Source: Candidatus Kaiserbacteria bacterium
GTDB lineage: Bacteria > Patescibacteriota > Minisyncoccia > Phycocordibacterales > UBA2100
Assembly (NCBI GenBank): GCA_019247335.1
Contig: JAFAPB010000070.1
Coordinates: 1 to 50,805, forward strand
Length of the DNA: 50,805 bases
Direction: 5' to 3'
Below the pieces are notes generated by a model. The model was not told the DNA's origin, searched no databases, and saw only the letters and a list, made by a program, of their open reading frames with translations. This document shows, piece by piece, positions 1-34,975 of the stretch (the stretch's first letter is position 1; the number at the start of each line of letters is the position of its first letter). Position numbers and translations under genes: made by a program.

Positions 1-472
1 GGACAGGTGATGCATGGCTGTCGTCAGTTCGTGGTTTGAATCGTTCCCTTCAGTGGGGTAACGAACGCAACCCTCGTTGCCAGTTACAAGTGTCTGGCGA
101 GACTGCCCCCTCACGGGGGAGGAAGGTGAGGATGACGCCAAGTCAGCATGTCCCTCTGATGTCCTGGGCTGCACACGCGCTACAATCGCCTTTACAAAGG
201 GACGCAATGCTGCGAAGCGGAGCAAATCCCCAAAAGAGGCGCCAGTTCGGATTGGAGTCTGCAACCCGACTCCATGAAGCCGGAATCGCTAGTAATCGCG
301 GGTCAGCCACACCGCGGTGAATACGTTCTCAAGCCTTGTACTCACCGCCCGTCAACTCAGGGAAGTTGGGAGTGCCCGAAGCACATCCTCGCGATGTACC
401 AAGGCAAACTCAATGACAAAGAGTAAGTCGTAACAAGGCACGGGTAGCGGAAGCTGCTCGTGGATTCATTCA
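1..472 (+). rRNA. rrs: 16S rRNA, 3'-terminal ~470 nt (gene begins upstream of the window; roughly E. coli 1040-1542 equivalent)
   Basis: Universal 16S blocks are readable: GCATGGCTGTCGTCAG, AACGAACGCAACCC, GGAAGGTGAGGATGACG, GCTACAATCG, GGATTGGAGTCTGCAACCCGACTCCATGAAGCCGGAATCGCTAGTAATCG, GGTGAATACGTTC, CACCGCCCGTCA, AAGTCGTAACAAGG. These are followed by a perfect 10-bp helix 45 (CACGGGTAGC-GGAA-GCTGCTCGTG, 441..464). Compensatory substitutions (e.g. the 1409/1491-equivalent pair is A-U) suggest a functional but very divergent rRNA. The exact 3' end is uncertain by a few nt. Confidence 0.9.
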
Positions 473-647
473 AAATTGAGAAGGTTCTGCCCATCGGGTA
501 ACTGATGGAATCGGAACTTGATCGTCGATTCGTGTGTCTCGATCGAGCACGCGACGGGAAATTGTATTCATCCCTAACTGATACATGACGCATCGGGAAA
601 GACCGATGGTTTGGACGGAACAAAAGAGTGTAAATCTGTGTGTAAGC

Positions 648-682
648 AAAAAGCGCCGACCCTTATGGGCACGGCGCTTTTT
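648..682. terminator. Bidirectional intrinsic terminator between the 16S and the convergent HEPN gene
   Basis: AAAAAGCGCCG - 13-nt loop - CGGCGCTTTTT. The GC stem is flanked by an A-run on one side and a T-run on the other, so it can terminate transcription from either strand. Confidence 0.7.
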
Positions 683-714
683 GCTTTAACGCGTTTAACC
701 CGTTTGTCGTGAAG

Positions 715-1176
715 CTAGAATTCCCAGTTATCTTGACTGTTAGGAAATCCAAATGCTTTCACAACGAAGTTCACGTCAGTAAGAAATTCTGCAACAGTCC
801 TAGCGTTCAAGACTATCTCCTTCGTATAATCCACTCTGTGAAGAACAATTTCCTCCTTATTCTTTTTTATCTCGTAGTAACTCCAATGAGCGACTGCGTT
901 TCTAAATCGTTGGATCGAACGTAATGCTTGCTTAATCTTTGCGTAGTGCTTTAGTCGTTTGAAGTACCCGATATTTTCAAATAGTGAAATCTTCTTGTCA
1001 AAGCCGAAGGACTGAGAGTCTAAAATCAAAGCGTGAAAAGCCGACGCGCGGTGATTTGTTTTAGGGAAGAAATATAATCTTATTGTCCAGTCCAAGGCTA
1101 TTTCTACGGCAATAGCATCGGAAATAATATTTGCCCGACACTTTAATAATTTTTCTAGTGCTTTTTCTTTGTTCAT
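715..1176 (-). CDS. HEPN-motif protein (Rx4H: R92-NAVA-H97), Abi/DUF4145-like putative RNase; no partner gene
   Basis: 153-aa ORF in a visibly AT-richer segment. It carries ...LRSIQRFRNAVAHWSYY..., matching the HEPN RNxxxH catalytic motif. It is bracketed by hairpin terminators at 648..682 and 1257..1286. The family assignment rests on this motif alone. Confidence 0.55.
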   Translation of the reverse strand: MNKEKALEKLLKCRANIISDAIAVEIALDWTIRLYFFPKTNHRASAFHALILDSQSFGFDKKISLFENIGYFKRLKHYAKIKQALRSIQRFRNAVAHWSYYEIKKNKEEIVLHRVDYTKEIVLNARTVAEFLTDVNFVVKAFGFPNSQDNWEF

Positions 1177-1256
1177 AACTATGTCTCAATATTAGCCTCG
1201 CCGCACGGCAGCGACCCAAGTAGTGGACTCTACGAGTGCTAAGCAGCTCGAATTTT

Positions 1257-1286
1257 CGCCCGGCCATGAGTGCCGGGCGCTTTTTT
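1257..1286 (+). terminator. Orphan plus-strand intrinsic terminator
   Basis: CGCCCGGC-CATGAGT-GCCGGGCG followed by TTTTTT. There is no plus-strand gene upstream of it. Confidence 0.5.
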
Positions 1287-1314
1287 GGAATTATCTGATT
1301 GGTATACTTGATGC

Positions 1315-1794
1315 ATGAATATACCTAAAAATACGATTTGTTTGTGGTACGAGAAGGATGCGCAAGCGGCAGCGGAGTTTTATGCGGCGACTTTCCCGGA
1401 TAGCAAGGTGGGAGATATTTTCCGCGCGCCCACCGATTTCCCGGGCGGCAAGGCAGGCGATGTGCTGACGGTCGAATTCACGGTGGTCGGGATCTCGTGC
1501 GTCGGTCTCAACGGCGGGTCGTTCTTCAAACAGAGCGAGGCGTTCTCTTTTATGATTGCGACCGAAGACCAGGCGGAGACCGACAAATACTGGGACGCGA
1601 TCGTCGGCAACGGCGGCAAAGAAAGTGATTGCGGCTGGTGCAAAGACAAATGGGGAGTCTCGTGGCAGATCACGCCCCGCACATTGCTGGAATCCCAGAA
1701 AGCGGGCGGCGACGAGGCGAAGCGCGCGTTCGAGGCGATGCTCACGATGAAGAAGATAGACGTCGCCGCTATTGATAAAGCGCGGAAGGGATAA
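1315..1794 (+). CDS. VOC/glyoxalase-superfamily protein, PhnB-like / '3-demethylubiquinone-9 3-methyltransferase' domain type
   Basis: 159 aa. Family-typical sequence: ...CLWYEKDAQAAAEFYAATFPDS...LTVEFTVVGISCVGLNGG...CGWCKDKWGVSWQI... A TGgTATACT box ends 6 nt before the ATG. Confidence 0.8.
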   Translation: MNIPKNTICLWYEKDAQAAAEFYAATFPDSKVGDIFRAPTDFPGGKAGDVLTVEFTVVGISCVGLNGGSFFKQSEAFSFMIATEDQAETDKYWDAIVGNGGKESDCGWCKDKWGVSWQITPRTLLESQKAGGDEAKRAFEAMLTMKKIDVAAIDKARKG

Positions 1795-1795
1795 T

Positions 1796-2227
1796 ATGGC
1801 CACGATAAATCCGTGGATCAATTTCAACGGCAATGCCGAAGAGGCGTTTACATTCTATAAATCGGTATTCGGCGGTGAATTTGGAGAACTCATCCGCATG
1901 AAGGATCTCAAATGGGACGGCTACCACGTGCAGGCAGAAGATGCCGAGAAAGTCTGGCGGATCACGTTGCCCATCGGCAAAAATATATTGATAGGCAACG
2001 ACGTGCCGACAATGCTCGGGCGAGTAAGCGAAGAGGAAAACAGATCAAAAATTGCGGTGAGCGCGGAAAGCCGTGAGGAAGCAGAGAGCCTCTTCAACGG
2101 CCTTTCCGTGGGCGCGACGGTGGAAATGCCCATGGCAGAGAGTCCATGGGGTACATGGTTCGCGATGTTTCGAGACAAATACGGCATCGAGTGGACGGTG
2201 GAATTTGACCCGAACACAAAGAAATAA
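1796..2227 (+). CDS. VOC/glyoxalase-superfamily protein (PhnB-like)
   Basis: The ATG at 1796 lies 1 nt after the upstream stop. Sequence MATINPWINFNGNAEEAFTFYKSVFGG...SPWGTWFAMFRDKYGIEWTV is typical of PhnB-like proteins. Confidence 0.8.
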   Translation: MATINPWINFNGNAEEAFTFYKSVFGGEFGELIRMKDLKWDGYHVQAEDAEKVWRITLPIGKNILIGNDVPTMLGRVSEEENRSKIAVSAESREEAESLFNGLSVGATVEMPMAESPWGTWFAMFRDKYGIEWTVEFDPNTKK

Positions 2228-2278
2228 AAGGCGCGAGCTCCGGTGAGTCGCGCCAGTTTTATGGATGGGGCGTTGTCG

Positions 2279-2599
2279 TCAGACGAATTCCTCCAGTGGA
2301 ATCAGTCGAGGGTTCGCGGCGATGGCACGGGCGCCATACTCAAGTCCGAACCGTCGTCCTTTGTCCGTCAGTTTGTAGAAATGGCACGGTCCTCCGCCTA
2401 CTCCTTTCGAAGACGCGGCGTATCCGGCATCTTCGAAGAACCCGACTTCGACCAGCTTCTTGAGCAGCCCGTAGTAATATCCGCTTCTCTTCTCCTTCGG
2501 GTCGAATTGAAGCGGGTAGACCTTGTTGTCCTCGGCCGTCATCGCCGTGCCGATAACCATCAGAACGTGATACGGCGACCATGAGTTTTTTCCGCTCAT
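2279..2599 (-). CDS. Hypothetical small protein, possibly winged-helix DNA-binding
   Basis: I chose the internal ATG at 2599 (106 aa). The longer ORF would run across the divergent promoter region of the 2691 gene. GAGGA sits 5 nt upstream. Function is not established. Confidence 0.45.
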   Translation of the reverse strand: MSGKNSWSPYHVLMVIGTAMTAEDNKVYPLQFDPKEKRSGYYYGLLKKLVEVGFFEDAGYAASSKGVGGGPCHFYKLTDKGRRFGLEYGARAIAANPRLIPLEEFV

Positions 2600-2690
2600 T
2601 TCGATCCTCGCTTTGCACGGCAATTTCAGCCGGATTAGCAATATGTCTCTGGTGGCCTGAAAACGCAAGTATTTTGATAGACTAGCCCTC

Positions 2691-3260
2691 ATGCAGAAAG
2701 GGGACGTTTTGACGTGCGAAAGTCAAAAAGAATTTGAGAAATGGCTTGCGAAGCATCATGCCACCTCGAAAGGCGTGTGGCTCCGATTCTTCAAAAAGCA
2801 TTCCGGCAAAAGGAGCTTCACGTATGGTGAGGCGCTCGACATAGCGCTCTGCTACGGCTGGATCGACAGTCTGGTGAATAAATACGATGCGGATTCCTAC
2901 ATTCAGAAGTTCTCTCCGCGCGGGCCTAAAAGCGTGTGGTCCAAGAGGAATCGAGAACACGTCGCACGCCTGATCAAGGCGAAGCGGATGAAGGCGGAAG
3001 GACTTGGGCAGGTAAAGGCTGCCAAAAAGGATGGTCGCTGGGACGGAGCTTATGACTCTCCGGCCAATATGAAAATACCGGCCGACTTTACGGCGGCGCT
3101 CCGCAAAGATAAAAAAGCGAAAGCGTTTTTCGACACGCTCAACCGCGCGAATCTCTATGCGATTGGCTGGCGTCTCCAGACGGCCAAAAAGCCCGAGACG
3201 AGAGCGAAGCGCATGGCCGCGATCCTCGCGCAATTAAAAGCGGGCAAGAAATTCCATTAG
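2691..3260 (+). CDS. YdeI/OmpD-associated family protein (DUF1801-related)
   Basis: 189 aa. Family-typical sequence: ...WLRFFKKHSGKRSFTYGEALDIALCYGWIDS...RANLYAIGWRLQTAKKPETRAKRMAAIL... Confidence 0.8.
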   Translation: MQKGDVLTCESQKEFEKWLAKHHATSKGVWLRFFKKHSGKRSFTYGEALDIALCYGWIDSLVNKYDADSYIQKFSPRGPKSVWSKRNREHVARLIKAKRMKAEGLGQVKAAKKDGRWDGAYDSPANMKIPADFTAALRKDKKAKAFFDTLNRANLYAIGWRLQTAKKPETRAKRMAAILAQLKAGKKFH

Positions 3261-3263
3261 AAT

Positions 3264-3665
3264 ATGATTATGGGAAAGAAAAGATCAGAGATCGTTCCCG
3301 GCGGCGTTGCGGAATATATCGCGAAGTGCCCCAAGGCGGTGCAGCCCACATTGAAGCAAATTCGCGCTGCCATCCGAGCGGCCGCCCCGAAAGCAACGGA
3401 GACAGTGAGCTACTTTCAATTTCCCGGCTATCACTATCCCGGTGAATACGCATACAACGGCATGGCCGCATGGTTTAGCTACAAAAAACCGTTCGTGCGG
3501 CTGCACATCTGGCCGGTAGTTATCAAGGCGCACAAAAAAGAACTCGCGATGTACAAGACCTCGGTCGGGGCGATCTATTTTCCCGAAGATAAGAAAATCC
3601 CGTCCGCGCTCATAAAAAAGCTCGTGAAAGAAAGCGTCAAGGTGACAAAAGCGAGCGCAAAATAA
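3264..3665 (+). CDS. DUF1801 (YdhG-like) domain protein
   Basis: 133 aa: ...VAEYIAKCPKAVQPTLKQIRAAIRAAAPKATETVSYFQFPGY... The second ATG at 3270 sits exactly 6 nt after a TAGAAT box and may be the real start. Confidence 0.75.
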   Translation: MIMGKKRSEIVPGGVAEYIAKCPKAVQPTLKQIRAAIRAAAPKATETVSYFQFPGYHYPGEYAYNGMAAWFSYKKPFVRLHIWPVVIKAHKKELAMYKTSVGAIYFPEDKKIPSALIKKLVKESVKVTKASAK

Positions 3666-3670
3666 ACTCG

Positions 3671-4936
3671 CTATTTCGCGGTCGAGAGAAGCGCGGCGGC
3701 GCTCCAGGCCTGGATGCGGCACGCGCCGCCGGAGCCGTTCTCATGCTTGTACTCGCGAAATCTCCCGCGCGTGAATCCAAAAAGCTCGATCGGCGTCGCA
3801 TAGTGCTGATAGGCGCGCCGAAGTGCTTCGCGCAGGCGCTCTCCATCGGCGGCGTATCCGAAATTATCCAGTCCCGCCGCGACGATCGCAGTGTCGTGCG
3901 GCCAGATCGAGCCGTTGTGATAACTGACGGGATCGAAGCGCGACGAGCGCGAGGAGAGCGTACGGATGCCCGCGTGCGGCACGAAAAGGTCGCGCGCCAT
4001 GAGGCGCTCAGCGATCACGGGAATATACTTCTCGTCGAGCACGCTCTCATGCTTGCCGCCCGCGCCGCGCCAGGTCGCCCACAAGACGTGGCCCATCGAA
4101 GAGCGCGGTGAGACGAGCGGCTTTCCCTCGCCATCGATCGCGAAGGCGAGCGAGGGGCCCTTGCCGCGCTTCACGACGAAACGGCTGTTGAAGACATCCT
4201 TGATTGCGAAAGCCCGCTCGGCAAGGGTAGAGGCGAGCATGTGATCCCGCGGCGCGAAGTAATCGCTCCATGCGCGAAGCGCGGCAAAGGCGTACGCTTG
4301 CGCTTCAAGCGGCGCGATCGGGTAAAGAGGTCGCACATCGCTTTCCTCGAAGAAAACAGATTCCACGCTATCCATCCAGCTCTGCGTCTTGAGGCCCCCG
4401 TGCTTTCGGTCGGGGTGGAAGGTGTAATCGATAAGCCCGTCGCCATTGGCGTCGCCGCGGTCGAGAATCCATTGCAGCGCCGCATAGATGGAGGGCATAA
4501 GCGACTCAATGACCTCGTCCTTGCCGCTTGCACGCCAGTATTCGTAGACGGTCAAGAGGTAGAGCGGCGTCGCGTCGACCGTATCGTAATTGCGCATCAC
4601 ATTGTCGGGGTAGAGGTACCAGGGCGTATGCGAGAGGGCAGTCAGGTGCTCGTGACCGCTCGGCCGCCACTCATGAATCATTTTGCCGGGCTCTTCGCCG
4701 CTTTCGATGTTGATCTCTTTGCCCTGCAGCAGCGCGAGGTTCCGGAGGATCTTCTCTACTAAATAAAGAAAGTAGGGATCGGAGCGTCGTTCATGAACGC
4801 GCAGGAGAAGAAGGCTCGTGATCAGAGAATCGCGGCCGAAGATGCAGCCATAAATTTCCTGCCGCGATGACGCGAGGATGCCGTGCTCCGTTTCGAGTTC
4901 CTTGATGCTCTTCAGTCCCAATTCCCAGAAATCCAT
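3671..4936 (-). CDS. Amylo-alpha-1,6-glucosidase / glycogen-debranching-enzyme C-terminal-domain (GDE_C) family protein
   Basis: 421 aa. Family-like segments: GILASSRQEIYGCIFGRDSLIT, DATPLYLLTVYEYW, EAQAYAFAALRAW, YHNGSIWPHDTAIVAAGL. Confidence 0.8.
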   Translation of the reverse strand: MDFWELGLKSIKELETEHGILASSRQEIYGCIFGRDSLITSLLLLRVHERRSDPYFLYLVEKILRNLALLQGKEINIESGEEPGKMIHEWRPSGHEHLTALSHTPWYLYPDNVMRNYDTVDATPLYLLTVYEYWRASGKDEVIESLMPSIYAALQWILDRGDANGDGLIDYTFHPDRKHGGLKTQSWMDSVESVFFEESDVRPLYPIAPLEAQAYAFAALRAWSDYFAPRDHMLASTLAERAFAIKDVFNSRFVVKRGKGPSLAFAIDGEGKPLVSPRSSMGHVLWATWRGAGGKHESVLDEKYIPVIAERLMARDLFVPHAGIRTLSSRSSRFDPVSYHNGSIWPHDTAIVAAGLDNFGYAADGERLREALRRAYQHYATPIELFGFTRGRFREYKHENGSGGACRIQAWSAAALLSTAK

Positions 4937-4961
4937 ACTACGTTAGACGTAGTATAGGCGA

Positions 4962-5999
4962 TTATTTTTCTTCGACTACTTGCGCAAATATTTTTTCGTA
5001 GCCATCTGCCATCTGCGCAACGCTGAAGCGCGAGAGTACGTGCGTGCGACAAGCGGCGCGCGAGATCTCGCCGATGCGCTCGACCGCCTCGATCATCTCT
5101 TCTGTGTCCGAGACGACGAATCCGGTCGTGCCATCAATGATGAGTTCGGGGATCGAGCCCAGATTGATCGCAACGACGGGGCAGCCACACGCCATCGCTT
5201 CAATGATCGCGAGCCCGAAGGGCTCGCGCCAGGTCACCGGGTGGAGAAAGCAGCGGGCGCGGCTCATAAGCTCGTTGCGTTCTTCGTCACCGACCTCGCC
5301 GATGAGCCTGATCTTTTCGGAAAGGTGCGGCTCCACGTACTCTTTAAAATACGGACGATCCTGCGCGTCGACCTTGCCGGCCAGAATGAGCGGCATATCC
5401 AATTCCTGCGCGACCTGTATCGCGATATGCGTGCCTTTTTGCATCGAGATGCGCGCGACGAAGAGGAGATACTCTTCCGCTGTTTCATGGAAAGGCGAGC
5501 CTTCGAGCGGGAGGCCGTGATAGACAGTGCCGATGTGGTTGAGATCGCCGAATCCGTGCACCTGCGCCTTGGAGATCGAGACGATGTGCGGCTTCCGCAT
5601 CGCCTGAAAGAGTCGCTTGTTCACCGTATTGAATGCGCCGTGCATCGTCATGACGACCGGCGTCTCCGCGAGATTCGCCGCGGGCAAGCTCAAGGGCGCG
5701 AGATGGTCGTGGATTATGTCAAACTCCTTCTGCCTGCTATACGCCTCGCCGAGGTGGAGCAGCGTGTATTCATTGGAGCCGTAGAGATCGCGCACTTTTC
5801 CTTCGCGTAGTCCGCGTGGATACACAGATGAGAGCCGGGCGCTCGTCTGCGAATCGCCGGTCGCAAAAAGCGTGACCTCGTGGCCGCGACGGACGAGCTC
5901 GTCGGTGAGCGCGTGCACGACGCGCTCGGTCCCGCCGTACATCTTGGGCGGGACGCGCTCCACGATGGGCGCGAGTTGGGCAATACGGAGCGGGCGCAT
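4962..5999 (-). CDS. Glycosyltransferase family 4 (GT-B, group 1)
   Basis: 345 aa: MRPLRIAQLAPIVERVPPKMYGGTERVVHALTDELVRRGHEVTLFATGDS... and C-terminal EPFGLAIIEAMACGCPVVA. Confidence 0.85.
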   Translation of the reverse strand: MRPLRIAQLAPIVERVPPKMYGGTERVVHALTDELVRRGHEVTLFATGDSQTSARLSSVYPRGLREGKVRDLYGSNEYTLLHLGEAYSRQKEFDIIHDHLAPLSLPAANLAETPVVMTMHGAFNTVNKRLFQAMRKPHIVSISKAQVHGFGDLNHIGTVYHGLPLEGSPFHETAEEYLLFVARISMQKGTHIAIQVAQELDMPLILAGKVDAQDRPYFKEYVEPHLSEKIRLIGEVGDEERNELMSRARCFLHPVTWREPFGLAIIEAMACGCPVVAINLGSIPELIIDGTTGFVVSDTEEMIEAVERIGEISRAACRTHVLSRFSVAQMADGYEKIFAQVVEEK

Positions 6000-7632: not shown

Positions 7633-7670
7633 GCGGCACCCAACTGGGCAACCTGAGGAGCTTGAGGGAA

Positions 7671-7880
7671 ATGGCGACAGGAAGTGTGAAGTTCTTCAAT
7701 GGCGAACGCGGTTACGGTTTCATCAAGCCGGACGACGGCGGGCGCGATATCTTCGTGCACATCACCGCCGTGGAGCGGGCGGGCATGAAGTCGCTGTACG
7801 ACGGACAGCGTTTGTCCTTCGACACCGAACCCGACAAGAAGGGCAAGGGACCGAAGGCCGTGCGTCTCGAGTCGATCTGA
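7671..7880 (+). CDS. Cold-shock protein, CspA family
   Basis: MATGSVKFFNGERGYGFIKPDDGGRDIFVHITAV carries the RNP1/RNP2 motifs. The ATG at 7671 is preceded by GAGGGAA. Confidence 0.9.
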   Translation: MATGSVKFFNGERGYGFIKPDDGGRDIFVHITAVERAGMKSLYDGQRLSFDTEPDKKGKGPKAVRLESI

Positions 7881-10586: not shown

Positions 10587-11297
10587 ATGGACTTGAAGGG
10601 GTCATCGGCGGTGATAACGGGCGGAGCACGCGGGCTCGGTGCCTCGCTCGCGCGTGAGCTTGTCGAGAACGGTGGCAATGTGCTCATTTCGGACATCGAC
10701 GGGGGTGATCTGCGCTCGCTCGCCAAAGAGCTCGATATGCCGTCGTTGCACTGCAACGTGACGGATCGCGAGCAGGTGGAGGCGCTCGGTCGCTACGCGA
10801 TGGAGCGCTTCGGCCAGATCGATCTCTGGATCAACAACGCGGGCATCTGGATGCCGTACATGCCCGCGCTCGAGATCGATTTCAATAAGGCGCGTCAGCT
10901 GATCGACGTGAATTATTTCGGCACCGCCTACGGTATGCTCGAAGCGGTAAAGCATATGCAGCCGCGCGGTGCGGGCACTATTTTAAATATCCTCTCGGTG
11001 CGCTCCTTGAAAGGCAAAGCGCTCGGCGCGGCATACTCGGCAAGCAAATTCGCAGCCGAAGGATTCACGCAAGCGGTGCGCGACGAGCTCAAGGATACGG
11101 GCATTTCCGTCCTCGGCGTCTATCCGTATCGCATGAAGACGGGACTCTTCGGCGAGCACAAGCACAAGGATTACGCGCAGTCGATGGAGCCGGACGATGT
11201 CGCGAAAATAATCACCGACAATCTCATCCATCAGCGCCCCGCAGAGCACCTCGAGATCTGGAGCGCGACCGACGTACGCAAGTCATACATCGTATGA
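10587..11297 (+). CDS. Short-chain dehydrogenase/reductase (SDR) family oxidoreductase
   Basis: TGGARGLG cofactor motif, NNAG, and the catalytic YSASK motif. Confidence 0.9.
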   Translation: MDLKGSSAVITGGARGLGASLARELVENGGNVLISDIDGGDLRSLAKELDMPSLHCNVTDREQVEALGRYAMERFGQIDLWINNAGIWMPYMPALEIDFNKARQLIDVNYFGTAYGMLEAVKHMQPRGAGTILNILSVRSLKGKALGAAYSASKFAAEGFTQAVRDELKDTGISVLGVYPYRMKTGLFGEHKHKDYAQSMEPDDVAKIITDNLIHQRPAEHLEIWSATDVRKSYIV

Positions 11298-11983
11298 ACG
11301 TGATGGCGGTTCGCACCGCTCTTTTCAAAGAAGGAAATGACCTAGCCGCTTTTATCATTCGTCACATACCAAAAGTAAAAAACGGTTTCGTGATCGTCGT
11401 CTCGTCGAAGATCGCGGCGCTTGCAGAAGGCCGTACCGCTGGTGCGCACGACAAAGAGCGGCTGATCAAAAAAGAGAGTTCATGGCGCAAGAGAATATTG
11501 CCGAAATGGTGGCTCACGGTACGCGATGGCGTCGCGATCGTAAATGCCGGCATCGATGATTCGAATGCGGAAGGGAAACTCGTACTTTTGCCGAAAGACT
11601 GTTTCAAAACGGCTGCCGCGCTTCGCGCGAAGCTCAAAAGGCACTACCGCATTCGTAATCTCGGTGTGATTTTGACCGACAGTCGCGTCGCGCCGCTGCG
11701 CGCAGGCGTGACCGGCGTTGCGCTCGGTTACGCAGGATTCAAGGGTGTCCGTGATTATCGCGGCACAAAAGATTTATTCGGTCGCCGGCTTGAAGTCACG
11801 CAGACCAACGTCGCGGATTCGCTCGCGACTGCAGCCACATTACTCATGGGCGAGGAAAGCGAGCGTCAGCCGCTTGCTGTCATCGAAGATGCACCCGTCG
11901 AATTCGCGGAGCGCGTGAACCGGAAGGAAACATTGATATCGCTCAAAGACGATATCTATCGCGACCTGTTTAAGCGACGGTAG
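11294..11983 (+). CDS. Coenzyme F420-0:L-glutamate ligase (CofE)-like protein
   Basis: VVSSKIAALAEGR, NAGIDDSNAEG, and LTDSRVAPLRAGVTGVALGYAGFKGVRDYRG...VADSLATAATLLMGE match the CofE/F420-ligase family layout. Its start overlaps the SDR stop (ATGA). Confidence 0.7.
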   Translation: MNVMAVRTALFKEGNDLAAFIIRHIPKVKNGFVIVVSSKIAALAEGRTAGAHDKERLIKKESSWRKRILPKWWLTVRDGVAIVNAGIDDSNAEGKLVLLPKDCFKTAAALRAKLKRHYRIRNLGVILTDSRVAPLRAGVTGVALGYAGFKGVRDYRGTKDLFGRRLEVTQTNVADSLATAATLLMGEESERQPLAVIEDAPVEFAERVNRKETLISLKDDIYRDLFKRR

Positions 11984-15345: not shown

Positions 15346-15360
15346 CAATCGTGAAAGTCG

Positions 15361-15388
15361 ATTGTACGCCGGCTGCTTTTCCATGCAA
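15361..15388 (-). promoter_or_regulatory. Putative promoter of the riboswitch operon (TTGCAT-16 nt-TACAAT on the minus strand)
   Basis: The hexamers were read on the reverse complement (plus-strand ATGCAA 15383..15388 and ATTGTA 15361..15366). Confidence 0.5.
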
Positions 15389-15467
15389 TGTGCACAGCAC
15401 GACACAAAACGATCCGGCGCTGCGGTCAATATGCACGCCCGTCCATGCGCTCATCGGATATGACATA

Positions 15468-16985
15468 ATGCAGGCGTTTATGCCGCTCCCCGAAAACAAC
15501 GTCCCGACGATCATGGCAGCCTTCGGCGCAACAGGCGACCTCATGCGTGTGAAAGTCATCCCCGCGCTCTTCCATCTCCATACGAAAGGCCAGCTGCCGA
15601 CGATGTTCCGCGTCGTCGGATTCTCGCGCCGCCCGTGGAGCGACGATGAATTTCGCGCACACGTGAAAGGCGTCGTCGATATACACACCAAAGGGCTTTT
15701 CGACGCGACGAAGATCGATTCGTTTCTCGATATATTCAGTTTCCAACGCGGCGATTTCGACGAGAAGGACAGCTACGAAGCGCTGAAAAAGACATTTGAC
15801 CGGCTCGATACCGAATGGGGCGTGTGCGCGAACAAGCTCTTTTATCTCGCGGTCGCGCCGGAATTTTATACGACTATAGCCACGCACGTCGCGCAGTCGA
15901 AGCTCTCCGAGCCATGCGCGCCCGGCGGCGGATGGACCCGCATCGTCGTCGAGAAGCCTTTCGGCGAAGATACGAAATCAGCTCGGAAGATCGACGAGCA
16001 CCTTGCGACGATATTCGACGAAAAGCAGATCTACCGCATCGATCATTATCTCGGCAAGGAAATGCTTCGCAACATTTTGATATTCCGATTCTCTAACAAT
16101 CTTTTCGAGATACCGTGGGGCAAGGAACTTATCGAGAAGATCAATATTCGTGTCGCGGAGTCGATCGGCGTCGAAAAGCGCGGACCTTTCTATGACGCGA
16201 CGGGCACCTTGCGCGACGTCGGGCAGAATCACTTGCTCCAAATAATCGCGCTTCTCACCATGGAGCGCCCGCGTACCTTCACCGATACGGCGATACGCGA
16301 GGAGCGCCGGAAAGCGCTTGAGCATATTAAAAAGCCGACGCTGCAACATATACAACGATATAGTTTCCGCGCACAGTACGAAGGATTTCGCGAAATTCCC
16401 GGTGTCGCAAAAGCGTCGAATACGGAAACATATTTTAAAGTGCGCGTTGATATCGATGCGCCGCGGTGGAAGGGCGTTCCGATCTATATGGAATGGGGGA
16501 AGCGTCTCGGCGAGGCGCAAAAGGAAATCGTGATCACCTTCAAGCATCCGCGGCCGTGCCTCTGCCCCCCGGGGAAGCATCATAAGAACGAGGTGATCAT
16601 CCGGCTCGAACCGAAGGAAGAAATTCTCATCGAATTCTGGTCGAAGAAACCCGGCTATACGCTTGAGACCGAAGCGCGCATGTTCCATTTCCTCTTTCGT
16701 GAGCGCGGCAGCACGGCGCAGTACACCGAAGAATATGAAAAAATGCTGCTCGATTGCATCGCCGGCGATCAGACGCTCTTTATTTCCACCGAAGAGATCC
16801 GTGCTATGTGGCGCTACATCGACCCGATCGTCGCGGCGTGGAAGAAAAATGCGACGCCGCTTCATTTCTATAAGCCGGATGACAAAAAAATAGTGGAGGA
16901 GGCGCGGGTCATCGAGAGCGGTGTACAAACGAGCGCGCGCGGCTATACTTCGGCCAGTCGGAAAAGGACTACAACACATGACTAA
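15468..16985 (+). CDS. zwf: Glucose-6-phosphate 1-dehydrogenase
   Basis: GATGDLMRVKVIPAL, EKPFGED, and the active-site motif RIDHYLGKE. The start is placed at ATG 15468; 15480 is also possible. The longer ORF overlaps the divergent riboswitch promoter. Confidence 0.9.
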   Translation: MQAFMPLPENNVPTIMAAFGATGDLMRVKVIPALFHLHTKGQLPTMFRVVGFSRRPWSDDEFRAHVKGVVDIHTKGLFDATKIDSFLDIFSFQRGDFDEKDSYEALKKTFDRLDTEWGVCANKLFYLAVAPEFYTTIATHVAQSKLSEPCAPGGGWTRIVVEKPFGEDTKSARKIDEHLATIFDEKQIYRIDHYLGKEMLRNILIFRFSNNLFEIPWGKELIEKINIRVAESIGVEKRGPFYDATGTLRDVGQNHLLQIIALLTMERPRTFTDTAIREERRKALEHIKKPTLQHIQRYSFRAQYEGFREIPGVAKASNTETYFKVRVDIDAPRWKGVPIYMEWGKRLGEAQKEIVITFKHPRPCLCPPGKHHKNEVIIRLEPKEEILIEFWSKKPGYTLETEARMFHFLFRERGSTAQYTEEYEKMLLDCIAGDQTLFISTEEIRAMWRYIDPIVAAWKKNATPLHFYKPDDKKIVEEARVIESGVQTSARGYTSASRKRTTTHD

Positions 16986-17883
16986 AAGCATCACACTCGT
17001 AGGTTTGGGAAAGATGGGTATCGGTATGGCGCAGCGGCTGCTTGAGAGCGGCTGGACCGTGCGCGGGTACGACCGGAATCCGGAAATAGCTAAGCAGCTC
17101 GAAAGCGCGGGCATGATAGCGCTCGAAAGTCTGGAGGAGATCCGCGAGGTGCCAACGCCGCGGCTTACTTGGATCATGGTCCCGGCGGGAAAGCCCGTAG
17201 ACGACGTGCTCGCCGAGCTTTCGAATGTGCTTGAAAAGGGCGACATCGTGATCGACGGGGGGAATTCTTTCTTCGAAGATTCCATCGCACGAGGAGAACG
17301 TCTCGCGGCGCAGGGCCTGCGCTTCATCGACGTCGGGTTCTCCGGTGGACCGCGCGGCGGGCGCGAAGGCGGATGCCTGATGGTGGGCGGCGACGAGAGC
17401 GCATTCAAAGAGCTTGAGCCGCTCTTCCAGGATCTCGCGCAAGATCGCACCGCATACGCGTTCTTTCCGGGCGCGGGCGCCGGGCACTTCGTGAAAATGG
17501 TCCACAACGGCATCGAATACGCCATGATGCAAGGCATCGCCGAAGGCTTCGCCGTCCTTAAGAAGGGACCGTTCAACATCGATCTGTTGCAAGCGGCGCA
17601 GATCTACAAGCAGGGAAGCGTCGTCACGTCCCGCCTCATCGACTGGACCGCTGAAGGCCTCAAGAAATACGGAGCCGATCTCGAAGAGATCTCCGGTTCG
17701 GTCGGTCACAGCGGGGAAGGTAAGTGGACAATCGAGACTGCGAGGAAATTCGGCATCCCCGTACCAGCCATCGAAGCGGCGTTCGAATTCCGCGTGCAGT
17801 CCGCGCAGCATCCGAATTTCATCGGACAGATGGTCTCGATGATGCGCAACATGTTCGGCGGACACGACGTGAGCAAGAAATAG
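16978..17883 (+). CDS. gnd: 6-phosphogluconate dehydrogenase (decarboxylating), short ~300-aa form
   Basis: MTKSITLVGLGKMGIGMAQRLL...GGNSFF...GFSGGPRGGREGGCLMVGG...HFVKMVHNGIEYAMMQ. It overlaps the zwf stop by 8 nt. Confidence 0.9.
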   Translation: MTKSITLVGLGKMGIGMAQRLLESGWTVRGYDRNPEIAKQLESAGMIALESLEEIREVPTPRLTWIMVPAGKPVDDVLAELSNVLEKGDIVIDGGNSFFEDSIARGERLAAQGLRFIDVGFSGGPRGGREGGCLMVGGDESAFKELEPLFQDLAQDRTAYAFFPGAGAGHFVKMVHNGIEYAMMQGIAEGFAVLKKGPFNIDLLQAAQIYKQGSVVTSRLIDWTAEGLKKYGADLEEISGSVGHSGEGKWTIETARKFGIPVPAIEAAFEFRVQSAQHPNFIGQMVSMMRNMFGGHDVSKK

Positions 17884-25301: not shown

Positions 25302-25333
25302 ATAAAAAGGGCGACCTTTGCTATACTTCGAGT

Positions 25334-27250
25334 ATGTCAGATCACGCCCATCACGAAGGACATCACGGAGGGAAGATCCATCCCGATCATCACGACGACG
25401 ATCGACGCATCACCTATTTCGCGACGACCCACACGCGCGGGAAGCGCGAGATGTTCGGCATCCGCGCCATCGATCGCGGCAAACACGTCTACGTGATCGG
25501 CAAGACCGGTATGGGTAAATCGACCATGCTCGAGAACATGGCGATCCAGGATATCCAGAACGGCGAAGGCATCGCATTCATCGATCCGCACGGATCGACG
25601 GCGGAGAAGCTGCTCGATTTCATCCCGCAGAGCCGCATCAAAGACGTCGTCTACTTCGCGCCGTTCGACACTGACTTTCCGCTCGGCTTCAACGTCATGG
25701 AGGATGTGGGCTATGACAAGCGGCACCTCGTCGTCTCGGGCCTCATGGGCGCCTTAAAACGCATCTGGGTCGACGCGTGGTCAGCGCGTATGGAATACAT
25801 TCTGCAGAACACGCTCCTCGCCTTGCTCGAGTACCCGGATTCCACGCTTCTCGACGTCAACCGCATGCTCACCAACAAGACCTTCAGGAACGCGGTCATC
25901 GAGAAAATCACCGACCCGATCGTGAAAGCGTTTTGGGTGGAAGAGTTCGCGGGCTTCACCGATACGTACACGAGAGAGGCGACGCCGGCGATCCAAAACA
26001 AGATCGGCCAATTCACCGCGAATCCGTTGATCCGCAACATCGTGGGGCAGGCGCATTCGTCATTCGATCTGCGCAAGATCATGGACGAAAAGAAGATTTT
26101 CATCGTCAATCTCTCCAAGGGCCGGATGGGCGAGACCAATGCGAGCCTGCTCGGCTCCATGCTCACGGTGAAGATCTACCTCGCCGCTATGTCGCGCGCC
26201 GACGAGCCTGCGGCGCGCATCGCGCGGCTGCCGCGCTTCTACTTCTACGTCGACGAATTCCAGTCGATGATGAACGAGGCGTTTGCCGATATTCTCTCTG
26301 AATCGCGCAAATACAAGCTCGCGCTCACGCTCGCGAACCAATACATCGAGCAGATGGAAGAAGAGGTCCGCGATGCGGTTTTCGGCAACGTCGGCACGCT
26401 CATCGTCTTCCGCGTCGGTCCTTTTGATGCCGAAGTTCTCGAGACGGTTTTCAAGCCGACATTTTTGCCGGAGGACCTTGTCGGCTTGGGCTTGGGACAG
26501 ATCTATCTCACGCTCATGATCGACGGGGTCGGATCCGCGCCGTTTTCCGCTGAAACTATCCCTCCGATCGAAGCGCCCGCGATCTCATACCGCGACGACG
26601 TGGTCGAATCCTCACGCGCGCAGTATGGCCGCATCCGCGCCGAAGTCGAATCAGCGATCAATAGCAAGCAACTCGAATTCGTGCCGCCGCCTAAGGAGAA
26701 AAAAGAGCGGCGCGACGGGCCGCGCGGCGGTGTGCGCGATCAGGGAACGGAGCCGCGCTCGCTCCTCGCCGGCATCGTGAAGCGCGAAGAGCCGCGCCCG
26801 GCAGCACCACCCGTGCGCGAGCCGCAGCCGCAATCGCAACAGCATGCGGCCCCTCGCCGGCAGGAAGCGCCGCGCCCGAACGAAGCCGTCGCACGCAATT
26901 CGCTCAAAGAGGCGATCGAGCGAGCGCGCGCCGAGAGCGCCGGGTCTGCAGCTCCAGCCGCGCCATCAAAATCCCCGTTGGAAGTACTCCGCGATCGCCG
27001 CGAGCAAAAAGAAGCGCGCGCGGGAGGGGAGAAGCCCAACCAGAACCGAGAGCCGCGCCGGGAGGAGCCGCGCCAAGCGCAGCCGAAGCGGGAAGAATCG
27101 CGTAAAGAAGAGCCGAAGCGCGAGGAGCGCAAGGAAGAACCCCGTCCGCAGTTGAAGGAAATCCAGCAGGATCACGCGCACGCCGAGGTCTCTCACCGCA
27201 CGCTTCAAGAAGTGCTCAACGGCCACAAGCGCGACTACGACGACCTATAG
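25334..27250 (+). CDS. TraD/VirD4/HerA-like P-loop ATPase (type IV coupling-protein-like) with His-rich N-terminus and long charged C-terminal tail
   Basis: Walker A VIGKTGMGKST. FYVDEF (Walker B-like). ...LTLANQY... The N-terminus is MSDHAHHEGHHGGKIHPDHHDDD. The C-terminal ~190 aa are Arg/Glu/Lys/Pro-rich low complexity. Confidence 0.7.
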   Translation: MSDHAHHEGHHGGKIHPDHHDDDRRITYFATTHTRGKREMFGIRAIDRGKHVYVIGKTGMGKSTMLENMAIQDIQNGEGIAFIDPHGSTAEKLLDFIPQSRIKDVVYFAPFDTDFPLGFNVMEDVGYDKRHLVVSGLMGALKRIWVDAWSARMEYILQNTLLALLEYPDSTLLDVNRMLTNKTFRNAVIEKITDPIVKAFWVEEFAGFTDTYTREATPAIQNKIGQFTANPLIRNIVGQAHSSFDLRKIMDEKKIFIVNLSKGRMGETNASLLGSMLTVKIYLAAMSRADEPAARIARLPRFYFYVDEFQSMMNEAFADILSESRKYKLALTLANQYIEQMEEEVRDAVFGNVGTLIVFRVGPFDAEVLETVFKPTFLPEDLVGLGLGQIYLTLMIDGVGSAPFSAETIPPIEAPAISYRDDVVESSRAQYGRIRAEVESAINSKQLEFVPPPKEKKERRDGPRGGVRDQGTEPRSLLAGIVKREEPRPAAPPVREPQPQSQQHAAPRRQEAPRPNEAVARNSLKEAIERARAESAGSAAPAAPSKSPLEVLRDRREQKEARAGGEKPNQNREPRREEPRQAQPKREESRKEEPKREERKEEPRPQLKEIQQDHAHAEVSHRTLQEVLNGHKRDYDDL

Positions 27251-27670: not shown

Positions 27671-28851
27671 GGCTCGGTGAGCGCTCGCTGTCGCCTTTTG
27701 TAATTAGATGCGAATTCTATCGGGGAACATTATGCTCAATGCCGCCATGATCTCACCCCAATTATGAATCGGATGAATCCATTTCTCGGTAATTGCAACT
27801 TGAGCTAGCCACAATAACTTAAGTACGGCTTCGTCATGCGGGAATACGATCGTAGTTTTCGTTACTCTTCGAAATTGTCGGTTGAGATTCTCAATTGCAT
27901 TTGTGCTGTAGATCAATTTTCGTATCGCGCTGGGGTATTCGAAGAACGTGTTCAGTTCTTGCCAGCGATCCTCCCAACTCTTCAGGTAAGGTCGATACTG
28001 TGGCCATTTCCGTATCACTTCATTGAGTGCTTCGATGCCTGACTCTTCAGTTGGCGCCGCGTAAATTTCTCTCAAATCCTCACAAAACTCCTTGCGATGT
28101 TTTGTCGGAACAAACATCATAGTGTGTCGAATTTGATGAATAATACAGACTTGAATCTGAGCCAATGGGTAGATGTTCTTAATCGCTTCAGGGAATCCTT
28201 TTAGCCCATCAACGCAAACTATTAACGCGTCTTCAGTGCCACGATTCTTAATCTCATTTAGCACGCCCATCCAGAACTTAGAACTTTCCGAATCGCTAAC
28301 CCAAAAGCCGAGCAGTTCTTTTTGTCCGGTTATTGTCACGCCCATTGCCACATAAGCGACCCTGGCTGCGACTCTTCCTGCTTCCCGCACGTTGAAGCGC
28401 AAACCATCTAAGAAGATTATTGCGTACGTTGTCGGTAAGACTCGCGACTGCCACTCTTTTATTAACGGAAAGACCTTATCCGTTATTGACGATACAGACG
28501 ACGGGGAAACCTCAACGCTACGCTGTGAGCGCATGTGGTTTGAGATTTCACGGGTTGAGAGGCCTTTGGCATACAGATCAATGATAATCGCCTCATTATC
28601 ATTTGTGACAATGTCTTGCCACGCTCTTGGTAATACAATCGGCTTTTCAGCGGTCTCGGTTTTCGATGCCTCTTCCTCTTCGAGATTCTGAACAGCTACT
28701 CTCTCGCCCGCCTCTCTTTCTGCTAACGCTCGCTCTGCAGCTTCGCGGGCTTTCAGTTGACCAATAAAGTCCATATCCTCCCATCCTCTAGATATCCCAT
28801 TAGTTTTCATATGCTTATTTTGTTAATGCAACATTCGAAGCGCTCCCGGCC
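27671..28851 (-). mobile_element. IS256-family insertion sequence (boundaries approximate)
   Basis: The transposase ORF is flanked by imperfect inverted repeats: GGCTCGGTGAGCGCTCG... (27671..) versus the reverse complement GGCCGGGAGCGCTTCG... (..28851). The segment is visibly lower in GC than its flanks. I found no clear target-site duplication. Confidence 0.65.
27704..28810 (-). CDS. IS256-family (Mutator-like) DDE transposase
   Basis: 368 aa with family-typical segments: ...VCVDGLKGFPEAIKNIYPLAQIQVCIIHQIRH..., ...YSTNAIENLNRQFRRVTKT... Confidence 0.9.
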   Translation of the reverse strand: MKTNGISRGWEDMDFIGQLKAREAAERALAEREAGERVAVQNLEEEEASKTETAEKPIVLPRAWQDIVTNDNEAIIIDLYAKGLSTREISNHMRSQRSVEVSPSSVSSITDKVFPLIKEWQSRVLPTTYAIIFLDGLRFNVREAGRVAARVAYVAMGVTITGQKELLGFWVSDSESSKFWMGVLNEIKNRGTEDALIVCVDGLKGFPEAIKNIYPLAQIQVCIIHQIRHTMMFVPTKHRKEFCEDLREIYAAPTEESGIEALNEVIRKWPQYRPYLKSWEDRWQELNTFFEYPSAIRKLIYSTNAIENLNRQFRRVTKTTIVFPHDEAVLKLLWLAQVAITEKWIHPIHNWGEIMAALSIMFPDRIRI

Positions 28852-28930
28852 GCGCGCTTAAGCATTTCAAAGACGAATGAAAATCCGTTGAGGACTCGCT
28901 TCACGCCAAAGTAAGATGTAAGGTAGTGTC

Positions 28931-29800
28931 ATGGCAAAGGAAACGGTGATCGTGACCGGAGGAGCGGGATTGATCGGTTCGCATTTGATCGAGCTTCTCC
29001 TTGAGAAATATCGCGTCATCTCGCTCGACAACTACTTCATCGGCAAAGAGTCGAGCCACATCGAGGGCGCGGAATATATCGAGGGGCATACGAAAGATAT
29101 CGAGCAACTTTTGGGAAATGAGAAGCCGGTCATTATTTTCCATCTCGGTGAATACTCGCGTGTCGAGCAGAGTTTTAACGATGTCGAGCTCATCTGGGAT
29201 TTGAATGTGCACGGCACCTTCCGCGTGCTCGAGTACTGGCGAAAACGCGGCTGCAGGCTCGTCTACGCGGGATCCTCGACCAAGTTCGCCGACGACGGCC
29301 TCGGGCGCGATCAGTCGCCCTACGCATGGATGAAGGCGACCAACACCGAGCTCGTGCAGAATTACGGGACCTGGTTCTCGCTGCCGTATGCGATCACGTA
29401 TTTCTATAACAATTACGGACCGCGCGAACTTTCCGAAGGGCCGTACGCGTCCGTCATCGGCCGCTTCAAGGAGCAGTACCGCAAAGGAGAGCCGATTACG
29501 GTAACTTCGCCTGGATCGCAGGAGCGCATGTTTACGTATGTGAAAGACACCGCGCGGGCACTGCTTATGGTCGGCGAGAAAGGGCAGGGTGACGGCTATG
29601 CGATCGGGAGCGGCGAGAAAATCTCCATCCTCGAGCTCGCGAAGCTCTTCAGCGACAACATCACGATGCTTCCCGAGCGCAAAGGCAACCGCATGCTCTC
29701 GGCGATCGACACGTCGAAGATCGAAAAAGAGTTCGGCTGGAAGCCGGAAATGAATGTCCGCAAATACGTCGAGATGCTCAAGAGTTGCAAAACGCAGTGA
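28931..29800 (+). CDS. NAD-dependent epimerase/dehydratase (extended SDR; UDP-sugar 4-epimerase/decarboxylase-like)
   Basis: VIVTGGAGLIGSHLIELLL...; the YxxxK region SPYAWMKAT; 289 aa. Confidence 0.85.
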   Translation: MAKETVIVTGGAGLIGSHLIELLLEKYRVISLDNYFIGKESSHIEGAEYIEGHTKDIEQLLGNEKPVIIFHLGEYSRVEQSFNDVELIWDLNVHGTFRVLEYWRKRGCRLVYAGSSTKFADDGLGRDQSPYAWMKATNTELVQNYGTWFSLPYAITYFYNNYGPRELSEGPYASVIGRFKEQYRKGEPITVTSPGSQERMFTYVKDTARALLMVGEKGQGDGYAIGSGEKISILELAKLFSDNITMLPERKGNRMLSAIDTSKIEKEFGWKPEMNVRKYVEMLKSCKTQ

Positions 29801-29828
29801 TTGCTTTTCTATAAGAATGTGTTATAAT
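29801..29828 (+). promoter_or_regulatory. Sigma70-type promoter with extended -10 (TTGCTT-16 nt-TGtTATAAT)
   Basis: Read directly from the sequence. It lies ~35 nt upstream of the 29864 ATG. Confidence 0.55.
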
Positions 29829-29863
29829 CAGGATAGTGCAATCAACGGACGAGGGGGCCGATA

Positions 29864-30550
29864 ATGGCTATTCTCACTGCTGTTCATGTCAGCGGCTATT
29901 CGCTCGCTGAACTCCGGGCATTCGCGCCCAAAGTGAAAGACAAATCGGGAGCACCGAAGCAGGCGCTCTACGACGACTGGCAGCGCGTTATGTGGGGCGG
30001 TGTCAACCTGCCCGGCCGTATCCCGATGGGCATCTACATGGCGCACCATACGGGCGCTCGCAAACTGATCTGGTCGACCGGCGCAAGCTGGGTCGACGGC
30101 ATGAGCGAGGCCGAGTACACCATGTTCGAAGCGATCGGCGCATACGAGCTGCTCCGCAAAAATTTCCCGGCATTCTTCGGCGCGGGTTTCTTCAAGACGG
30201 ACGGCGACTACAGGATGTGGATCCAGGGCATCTCCGTCGCCGAGCAGGAAAGCCGCAATACCGCGGAGTCGTTCCAGTACGCGGTGCCGATCATCGACGA
30301 ACTCGTCGGCGAACGCCTCGGCGAGCTCATCGTGGTCACTTCGGAAAACCACATCGAGCGGACGATGCGTGACGCGATTAGCGTCATGCGCCACGGGAAG
30401 CTGCCGCGCTCACCGACGGTCTTCGACGAGGTGCCGGCCGCGAAGAGCAAGCAGCTGATCATCTCCGGTACGGGCAGCTTTACAGGCTATGCGGGGCTCA
30501 CGGCGTCGGAAACGTACGTGCGCGATCTCGGTCAGCCGACGATGATCTGA
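29864..30550 (+). CDS. DUF218/YdcF (ElyC/SanA)-like protein
   Basis: IVVTSENHIERTMRDA resembles the DUF218 VTSxxHxxR motif. The assignment rests on this motif and the protein's size only. Confidence 0.5.
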   Translation: MAILTAVHVSGYSLAELRAFAPKVKDKSGAPKQALYDDWQRVMWGGVNLPGRIPMGIYMAHHTGARKLIWSTGASWVDGMSEAEYTMFEAIGAYELLRKNFPAFFGAGFFKTDGDYRMWIQGISVAEQESRNTAESFQYAVPIIDELVGERLGELIVVTSENHIERTMRDAISVMRHGKLPRSPTVFDEVPAAKSKQLIISGTGSFTGYAGLTASETYVRDLGQPTMI

Positions 30551-30574
30551 TCGGTCGTTCCGATCCTTGTGAAG

Positions 30575-30610
30575 TGCCGCGGGCCTTGCGCTCGCGGCGC
30601 TTTTATTTTT
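30575..30610 (+). terminator. Intrinsic terminator
   Basis: GTGCCGCG - loop - CGCGGCGC followed by TTTTATTTTT. Confidence 0.75.
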
Positions 30611-30637
30611 GACGCACTTCGTGCGTCGCGTTAGGGT
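30609..30637 (+). promoter_or_regulatory. Putative promoter TTGACG-17 nt-TAGGGT, with a perfect palindrome GACGCAC-TTC-GTGCGTC (30611..30627) in the spacer (possible operator)
   Basis: Read directly. The downstream gene has GGAGG 6 nt before its ATG. Confidence 0.4.
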
Positions 30638-34967: not shown

Positions 34968-34975
34968 TCGCGCCC

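Follow-up and report, generated by a model that had tools for sequence, protein, structure and literature searches.

Pairing between the Shine-Dalgarno (SD) motif of an mRNA and the anti-SD at the 3' end of 16S rRNA is the textbook bacterial start-site signal. Genomes of the non-anti-SD type were counted at 15 of 1,182 by Lim, Furuta & Kobayashi 2012 (PMC3457768), with examples among some Flavobacteria, insect endosymbionts and haemotropic mycoplasmas. In a later survey, which does not mention the candidate phyla radiation (CPR) or Patescibacteria, anti-SD loss in Nanoarchaeia is attributed to leaderless mRNAs (PMC10783764). The closest described case is that of the Parcubacteria, in which the anti-SD motif was found in only 48% of members; those without it overlap the lineages lacking uL1, and the inference drawn was that no SD helix forms, with no mechanism given (Tsurumaki et al. 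2022, RNA 28:1041; PMC9297842). In Flavobacterium johnsoniae the anti-SD region is tied to maturation of the 16S and not to mRNA selection in general, and its ablation slows that maturation, possibly via Era (PMC13000453). Era is an assembly GTPase that binds GAUCACCUCC; most CPR and most Paceibacteria lack it (PMC10582724; PMC12641178). Here we analyze a 50,805-nt stretch of DNA from a Candidatus Kaiserbacteria bacterium (contig JAFAPB010000070.1), referred to below as the window, which begins within a 16S rRNA gene whose 3' tail lacks the CCUCC core of the anti-SD. With a probability of roughly 0.8, this gene is the ordinary, and probably the only, 16S of a Kaiserbacteria-like member of the Parcubacteria/Paceibacteria, a lineage that lost its anti-SD core by substitution and initiates translation mainly at leaderless or coupled starts.

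The window holds the 3' third of the 16S rRNA gene (1..475, + strand, approximately E. coli 1040-1542), the 5' part lying beyond the window edge. This segment matches the bacterial small-subunit rRNA model, Rfam RF00177, over model positions 1032-1533 with 399.8 bits (E=1e-123; gathering score 50), a match that includes helix 44, helix 45 and the 3' end. In the Rfam alignment helix 45 is intact at 439..462 (+), with a GGAA loop (CACGGGUAGC-GGAA-GCUGCUCGUG), and six of its ten pairs covary across 40 relatives. The tail that follows, GGAUUCAUUCAAA(A) at 463..475 (+), aligns without gaps to the Rfam consensus GGAUCACCUCCUUu. It reads GGAUUCAUUCAAAA, with AUUCA at 468..472 in place of CCUCC; relative to the consensus GGAUCACCUCCUU the substitutions are C1535A, C1536U and C1539A, and U1537 and C1538 are retained. 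The window tail therefore has the absence of CCUCCU that characterizes the anti-SD-lacking Parcubacteria of Tsurumaki et al. 2022. A string search of 463..700 found no CCTCC, CCTC or CTCC. An earlier note on this DNA, made from the letters alone, had read the tail as a gapless replacement of CCUCC by AUUCA behind an intact helix 45, had considered an anti-SD hidden further downstream unlikely, and had argued that the gene is not a decaying pseudogene. The alignment and the string search confirm the first three points, and the high covariance-model score, the intact helix and the conserved trailer and synteny described below agree with the last.

Relatives were collected by scanning one genome per species for a 20-mer that includes a U at window position 342 (within 338..353, +; GUACUCACCGCCCGUC), which we take to be A1396 of the decoding-centre strand in E. 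coli numbering, and by ranking the matches against the window 16S. At least 120 genome contigs contain this A1396U 20-mer, almost all of them from Patescibacteria/CPR with a few Anaerolineae and Methylomirabilis, and it was rejected as a marker of close relatives because the signature is CPR-wide. Among the matches listed, to which the counts in this paragraph refer, the nearest 16S sequences are 96.8% (L048), 95.8% (L084) and 93.9% (L080, 'Ca. Kaiserbacteria') identical to that of the window, and a dozen more at 88-94% are titled Kaiserbacteria, Paceibacterota or Parcubacteria. Identities of 92-97% over 475 nt, together with the A1396U signature of CPR, place the window within the Parcubacteria/Paceibacteria. 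All close relatives (92-97%) continue after helix 45 as GGAUUCAUUC[C/A]AAA, and the tail GAUUCAUUC[A/C] is found in 19 loci. A larger Paceibacteria set has the tail GGAUUAAUUCCAAUUGGA, and intermediate tails (GAUCACCACA, GAUCACUACA, GAUCAUAACA and GAUCAAUUAA) also occur, so that CCUCC is absent from 99 of the 108 recovered tails. The sequence GGAUCACCUCCUU is kept in Berkelbacteria, Kuenenbacteria, one Gracilibacteria, Magasanikbacteria and a Chloroflexi genome. Four closed chromosomes (CP179887.1, OZ253947.1, OZ244961.1 and CP060229.1) have one match each in this listing, with a non-CCUCC tail. The comparison with the closest relatives that the earlier note had proposed accordingly returns the same non-CCUCC tail family in all of them.

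A search of 241 million metagenome records for helix 45 of this lineage joined to GATCACCTCC gave 29 contigs, all of them at most 81% identical to the window 16S; their sequences place these canonical-tailed contigs in distant Parcubacteria lineages. CPR-type 16S genes also turned up in metagenome-assembled genomes (MAGs) titled Fodinibius, Acidimicrobiales, Azotimanducaceae and Bacteroidales (L104, L112, L090 and L108). Many MAGs titled 'uncultured Candidatus Saccharibacteria' have Paceibacteria-like 16S, and many of the loci are 'binchicken' records (e.g. L048). Both observations suggest that some public bins are contaminated or loosely named. Two further features of the 16S gene itself may be recorded here. 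The A1396U change is a mismatch to 1392R-type universal primers, and in the helix 34/35 region (window 44..67) the sequence is GUUCCCUUCAGUGGGGUAACGAAC compared with the bacterial consensus GUcgGGUUAAGUCCcgcAACGAGC, the GGG and CCC arms being exchanged in a compensatory rewrite of a normally near-invariant segment.

The tail runs into a pre-16S 3' trailer (476..643, +), identified by its resemblance to the trailers of relatives. Window positions 476..687 are 81-88% identical to the DNA directly 3' of 16S in independent relatives, and the gene order 16S, tRNA-Ile, MurA-family gene is common to the window and these relatives; for both reasons the tail sequence can be taken as authentic. Within the trailer, UGGACGGAACAAAAGAGUGU (612..631, +) is conserved in relatives and would form the 3' strand of a long-range leader-trailer processing helix, since motifs of this type pair with the leader sequence AUUCUUUUGUUCCGUCCA in 10 of 10 full-length relatives (predicted duplexes of -57 to -108 kcal/mol). 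An intrinsic terminator (644..690, +), consisting of a hairpin at 644..686 and a U run, ends this stand-alone 16S unit. It was missed by a consensus-pattern terminator scan and confirmed by RNA folding (-36.8 kcal/mol, z = -6.9). Rfam searches of the window identified a single 16S gene and no 23S (large-subunit) rRNA; tRNA-Ile(GAU) is at 6174 and tRNA-Leu(CAG) at 9316. In ten relatives with full-length 16S genes (1287-1389 bits), 23S is likewise absent from the 3-6 kb downstream of 16S, and an unlinked 16S is therefore the norm in this clade.

Gene starts were evaluated with the same pipeline for all sequences: non-overlapping open reading frames (ORFs) of at least 100 aa were taken to begin at their first ATG and were compared with in-frame internal ATGs. 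A 50-kb E. coli region and 34 Parcubacteria loci with CCUCC served as controls, together replacing an earlier set of CCUCC-bearing CPR (25 genes) that was too small to calibrate the SD test. Predicted hybridization to a canonical tail is no stronger at window starts than at internal ATGs (-3.14 vs -3.04 kcal/mol, p=0.69), whereas the E. coli control separates the two (-5.08 vs -3.39 kcal/mol, p=2e-4). Similarly, SD-core 5-mers precede 3 of 48 window starts compared with 12 of 254 internal ATGs (p=0.44), and 8 of 40 compared with 6 of 329 in E. coli (p=2e-5). The window thus has no SD excess upstream of its genes, as in the non-anti-SD genomes of Lim et al. 2012, with E. coli as the positive control. 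Hybridization to the window's own tail also fails to distinguish starts from internal ATGs (-1.44 vs -1.15 kcal/mol, p=0.16), so that the scan of start regions suggested in the earlier note, now run on the window, yields no SD signal for the canonical or the native tail. The idea that mRNAs have a different SD matched to the new tail (UGAAU, UUGAA or GGAA) was rejected for want of enrichment or stronger hybridization: the tail-complementary k-mers TGAA, TGAAT, TTGAA and GAAT are not enriched at starts, nor is GGAA in genomes with a UUCC tail.

Across the Parcubacteria, the SD-core enrichment that remains follows how well the tail can pair. The 5-mer precedes 17% of starts vs 5% of internal ATGs in the group with CCUCC (p=2e-4), 12% vs 6% in that with UUCC (p=3e-4), 8% vs 5% in the window-like group with UUCA (not significant) and 8% vs 7% where tails are more degenerate (not significant). 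A UUCC tail can still pair with GGAG via G.U wobble, unlike the UUCA of the window. On the same figures, even the Parcubacteria that keep CCUCC (including L122-L150) are SD-poor. Operon-internal genes give the clearest contrast: in two Parcubacteria clades, SD 4-mers precede 0 of 22 and 1 of 17 coupled genes, compared with 6 of 9 in E. coli. For leadered genes the frequencies in two clades are 17% vs 10% (p=0.049) and 21% vs 9% (p=0.006), and 41% vs 3% in E. coli. Among the genomes with UUCC tails, 22 distinct genes have AGGAG or GGAGG at the right spacing, and their distinctness led us to reject the idea that the AGGAG enrichment there stems from spurious ORFs within rRNA genes. Genes of this kind with strong AGGAG or GGAGG motifs often encode signal-peptide-like N-termini (e.g. 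MKKIICLGVVSVSALLVGLS; loci L012, L020, L038, L055, L094, L119 and others), and may represent a class that stays leadered.

What the start regions of the window do contain is a positional -10 signal. A TAnnnT box begins exactly at -12 in 25% of the 48 predicted starts and at -14..-11 in 35%, compared with 2% of internal ATGs and 3% in E. coli. A -10 box that ends 6-7 nt before the AUG is the signature expected of a leaderless transcript. With gene models curated by Pfam, 17 of 46 window genes are of the leaderless type, and this promoter geometry suggests that leaderless initiation dominates. Examples are the TATACT box at 25322..25327 (+), 6 nt before the ATG at 25334 (TATACTtcgagtATG), and the starts at 35879 (TACAATgcccgcATG) and 42857 (TATACTggcgccATG), both on the + strand. 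Further ATGs of this type, from the curated list, are at 1315, 19190, 20508, 21220, 28931, 43423 and 46912 on the + strand and at 5999 and 42777 on the - strand; at all of these, transcription would be predicted to start at or next to the ATG. Another 14 of the 46 genes begin within or directly after the gene before them (gaps of -4, -8 and +1 to +3), and the remaining 15 were classed as 'other', several of them having near-consensus boxes outside the pattern (GATAAT, CATCAT). The link to leaderless mRNAs that the earlier note had drawn is plausible in light of this signature. All Parcubacteria groups share this -10 signal (18-30%), the CCUCC-bearing ones among them (18% vs 3%), and for this reason the leaderless regime appears to predate anti-SD decay in Parcubacteria. 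In the open-access literature we found no description of leaderless-dominated starts in Parcubacteria or of the co-variation between tail and trailer discussed below.

Three genes in the window are clearly leadered, and all three have GAGG motifs. One encodes a cold-shock protein (coding sequence 7671..7880 within 7655..7880, +; Pfam CSD, 72.6 bits) of 69 aa, below the 100-aa ORF cutoff; its leader contains GAGG twice, and GAGGAGCUUGAGGGAA precedes the ATG. A DUF218 gene (coding sequence 29864..30550 within 29824..30550, +) has TATAAT at about -40 and GAGGGGG at -13..-7, and a hypothetical gene without a Pfam family (coding sequence 30667..31119 within 30635..31119, +) has GGTAAT at about -32 and GAGGAGG at -13..-7. 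The leaders of the latter two are alike, with a -10-like box followed by CAACGGA(U)CGAGG(G/A)GG, and match no Rfam family in a relaxed search. Both genes lie immediately downstream of an IS256/Mutator-family transposase gene (27704..28810, -; Pfam 287 bits), beside which GC content dips to 0.51 at 28000..30000 relative to about 0.57. The earlier note had listed five SD-bearing starts. Those at 7671, 29864 and 30667 hold as leadered genes with GAGG, but 18652 and 2599(-) were rejected, being internal ATGs in frames that are open for 39 and 41 codons upstream. Its proposal that the purine motifs are fortuitous fits the window as a whole (3/48 vs 12/254, p=0.44) but sits less well with their presence in 3 of 3 leadered genes and with the weak, roughly two-fold excess in the clade. 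We regard the GAGG motifs of the three genes as relics of horizontal acquisition or as purine elements that act independently of an anti-SD, in which minor capacity they may still serve; they do not rescue an SD mechanism.

The former anti-SD positions of the tail can form a small hairpin with the trailer (469..480, +; U469.G480, U470-A479, C471-G478 and A472-U477, with an AAAU loop). In other lineages the same columns read UUCC-AAUU-GGAA, UUUC-AAAC-GAAA, UCCC-...-GGGA and CUCC(UU)/(AA)GGAG, and in CPR with a canonical tail the sequence runs on as CCUCCUUUCUAAGGAG, where the anti-SD can pair with an SD-like trailer start. Of 101 sequences, 32 have in their trailer an exact complement of their own 4-nt arm, compared with 14.1±3.0 for arms permuted among sequences, and none of 5000 permutations reaches 32. 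The complement is at the correct register in 23 of 78 unique tails, at +1 in 14, and in 1-4 at shifts of at least 2. Conservation in the closest clade ends right after ...AUUC[C/A]AAA, the position of the canonical and presumably the mature 3' end, which fits a hairpin that would form only in the precursor. As a sign of pairing, this sequence covariation is suggestive, not proven. It could tentatively be extended to a wider proposal, which we consider doubtful, that the nucleotides at E. coli 1536-1539 are selected through a hairpin with the SD-like trailer start and not through mRNA binding. Under such a proposal the ancestral pre-16S would have contained a 'self-SD' (CCUCCUUUCUAAGGAG, as in CPR with a canonical tail and in many other bacteria). 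Its two arms would have drifted jointly (UUCC/GGAA, UUUC/GAAA, UUCA/UGAG) after the loss of Era and of SD pairing, while a few leadered mRNAs kept GAGG motifs acting without an anti-SD.

Taken together, these observations suggest the following course for anti-SD loss by substitution. CCUCC would have changed to AUUCC in the wider clade and then to AUUCA in the sub-clade of the window. A ribosome with an AUUCA tail would be unable to dock mRNAs by SD pairing; the first genes of transcription units would be translated from leaderless mRNAs that originate from a -10 box 6-7 nt before the AUG, and downstream genes by coupling or re-initiation where the stop codon of one gene overlaps or lies close to the start codon of the next. 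The Parcubacteria may have tolerated such a loss because they used few SD motifs and many leaderless mRNAs beforehand, and because most Paceibacteria lack Era. Low SD usage, leaderless or coupled initiation and the loss of Era, to the last of which we assign a putative causal role, would then have removed both known constraints on CCUCC, permitting stepwise decay, and the former anti-SD nucleotides could remain constrained through pairing with the first trailer nucleotides in the precursor rRNA.

Several points weigh against this account. The view of rrs copies in the source genome covers 50 kb of it, so that a second copy is made improbable by the relatives and not by direct sight, and the count of one 16S per closed chromosome holds for the matches listed. 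Starts were set by a crude first-ATG rule, and 'leaderless' is here a class of promoter geometry. All three clearly leadered window genes have GAGG, which is above chance for three genes, albeit genes selected post hoc, and the roughly two-fold excess of SD motifs in the clade's leadered genes (17% vs 10%, p=0.049) is left unexplained by the model. With regard to the hairpin, the permutation test ignores shared ancestry, the window version is weak, with three Watson-Crick pairs and one G.U, and MAFFT with RNAalifold on 40 tails recovered helix 45 and not the small hairpin, because its loop differs in length among sequences and MAFFT placed no gaps in sequences of equal length.

These leadered genes lead to the alternative that purine motifs function as an SD without an anti-SD, being read by a ribosomal protein, by another rRNA segment or as an unstructured purine tract. 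GAGG at -7..-13 in the three window genes, the 17-21% of leadered genes with SD 4-mers over a background of about 10% (p=0.049 and 0.006) and the 22 genes with well-spaced AGGAG or GGAGG in UUCC genomes are all in keeping with it. The effect is small relative to E. coli (41-67% vs 3%), however, and is absent overall from the groups with window-like and more degenerate tails; the classification of leadered genes is noisy, and two of the three window cases adjoin the IS256 transposase in the GC dip and may be horizontally acquired relics. We consider this alternative unlikely. It is less likely still that the new tail (UUCAUUCAAAA) is a re-tuned anti-SD with a co-evolved mRNA motif such as UGAAU or UUGAA. 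U1537 and C1538 are kept, the tail is conserved in the sub-clade, and sister clades with UUCC, which show weak SD-core enrichment, could pair with GGAG or GGAA, but hybridization to the native tail is no stronger at starts, none of the complementary k-mers is enriched, GGAA in UUCC genomes included, and the purine motif is essentially absent from coupled genes.

The earlier note had also raised a special role for the unlinked gene, in which a canonical rrs (GGAUCACCUCC) is present elsewhere in the genome and the window copy builds specialized ribosomes for leaderless mRNAs. The separation of this 16S from 23S, its own terminator, the abundance of leaderless-type starts and the 50 kb of genome inspected leave some room for such a division of labor. 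CPR genomes usually have one rRNA gene set, however, and neither the tail nor the unlinked arrangement is special to this copy: the tail is found in every close relative among the matches listed, an unlinked 16S is the norm in the clade, the closed chromosomes of relatives have one match each among those listed, and in the 241 million metagenome records the search for this helix 45 with a canonical tail gave nothing above 81% identity to the window 16S. We judge a second, canonical copy highly improbable. The same conservation leaves hardly any probability for an artefact or for decay, whether the gene is taken as a pseudogene, its 3' end as chimeric in the assembly, or the true anti-SD as hidden by an intervening sequence. 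Although the window edge cuts the gene and leaves its 5' two-thirds outside the view, the covariance-model score is high, helix 45 is intact, no CCUCC precedes the terminator, the full-length 16S genes of relatives score 1287-1389 bits, and independent MAGs share the tail, the trailer, the strand of the processing helix and the gene order downstream.

In the window, the distance from the 16S terminator to tRNA-Ile is about 5.5 kb, compared with about 1 kb in L080 and L084, and the intervening region (715..5999) encodes a hypothetical protein, two VOC/glyoxalase-family proteins, OmdA/YdeI, DUF1801, a glycoside hydrolase and a GT4 protein; given this difference in length, the region looks like a lineage-specific insertion. 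Also present are an F420-0:gamma-glutamyl ligase-like gene (11294..11983), G6PD and 6PGDH (15351..17883), a type IV secretion coupling-protein-like gene with TrwB/TraG domains (25334..27250) and a surface polysaccharide cluster of about 21 kb (28931..50172), in which GT4 glycosyltransferases are dominant and flippase, DegT, CapD and epimerase genes occur. Pfam searches found no ribosomal-protein genes, that for uL1 included, in the 50-kb window, which says nothing on the rest of the genome.

The Parcubacteria, a very large and abundant radiation, suggest that bacteria can do without SD/anti-SD pairing where most initiation is leaderless or coupled. Starts in such genomes will be mis-called by gene finders that give weight to SD motifs, and the altered 16S 3' end and A1396U affect primer and probe design. 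The lineage also offers a natural experiment linking anti-SD decay, Era loss and maturation of the 16S 3' end.

The eukaryotic 18S 3' end (...GGAUCAUUA) is also without CCUCC. Its resemblance to the window tail is probably convergent, and mitochondrial 12S 3' ends belong to the same set of comparisons. Mycobacterium and Deinococcus (e.g. PMC4633059) are similar to the window in that a -10 box lies a short, constant distance before the AUG, but they keep a canonical anti-SD and use both modes of initiation. In Bacteroidia such as F. johnsoniae, nearly all genes are initiated independently of SD pairing, as proposed here; there, however, CCUCC is retained, occluded by bS21/bS18/bS6 and used for rpsU (PMC13000453), whereas in the window 16S the sequence itself is gone, which sets it apart from anti-SD sequestration of the Bacteroidia type. 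Category iv of PMC10783764 likewise has no CCUCC core and no evidence of tail-mRNA binding. The non-anti-SD genomes of PMC3457768 share with the window C-to-U/A changes in CCUCC, a reduced genome and no SD enrichment, the changes there affecting all rrs copies and in the window the one copy seen; the Flavobacteria among them belong to another phylum and have an A-rich upstream tract, in contrast to the -10 box at -12, of the leaderless type, in the window. The anti-SD-lacking Parcubacteria of PMC9297842 are the nearest counterpart, with the same phylum-level group and the same absence of CCUCCU. Anti-SD loss in Parcubacteria was thus already published in 2022, and the co-variation of tail and trailer and the leaderless-dominated starts are small additions to it; beyond that study, the present analysis describes the replacement tails (GAUUAAUUCC, GAUUCAUUCC and GAUUCAUUCA), their co-variation with the trailer, the absence of SD motifs and an architecture of leaderless and coupled starts.

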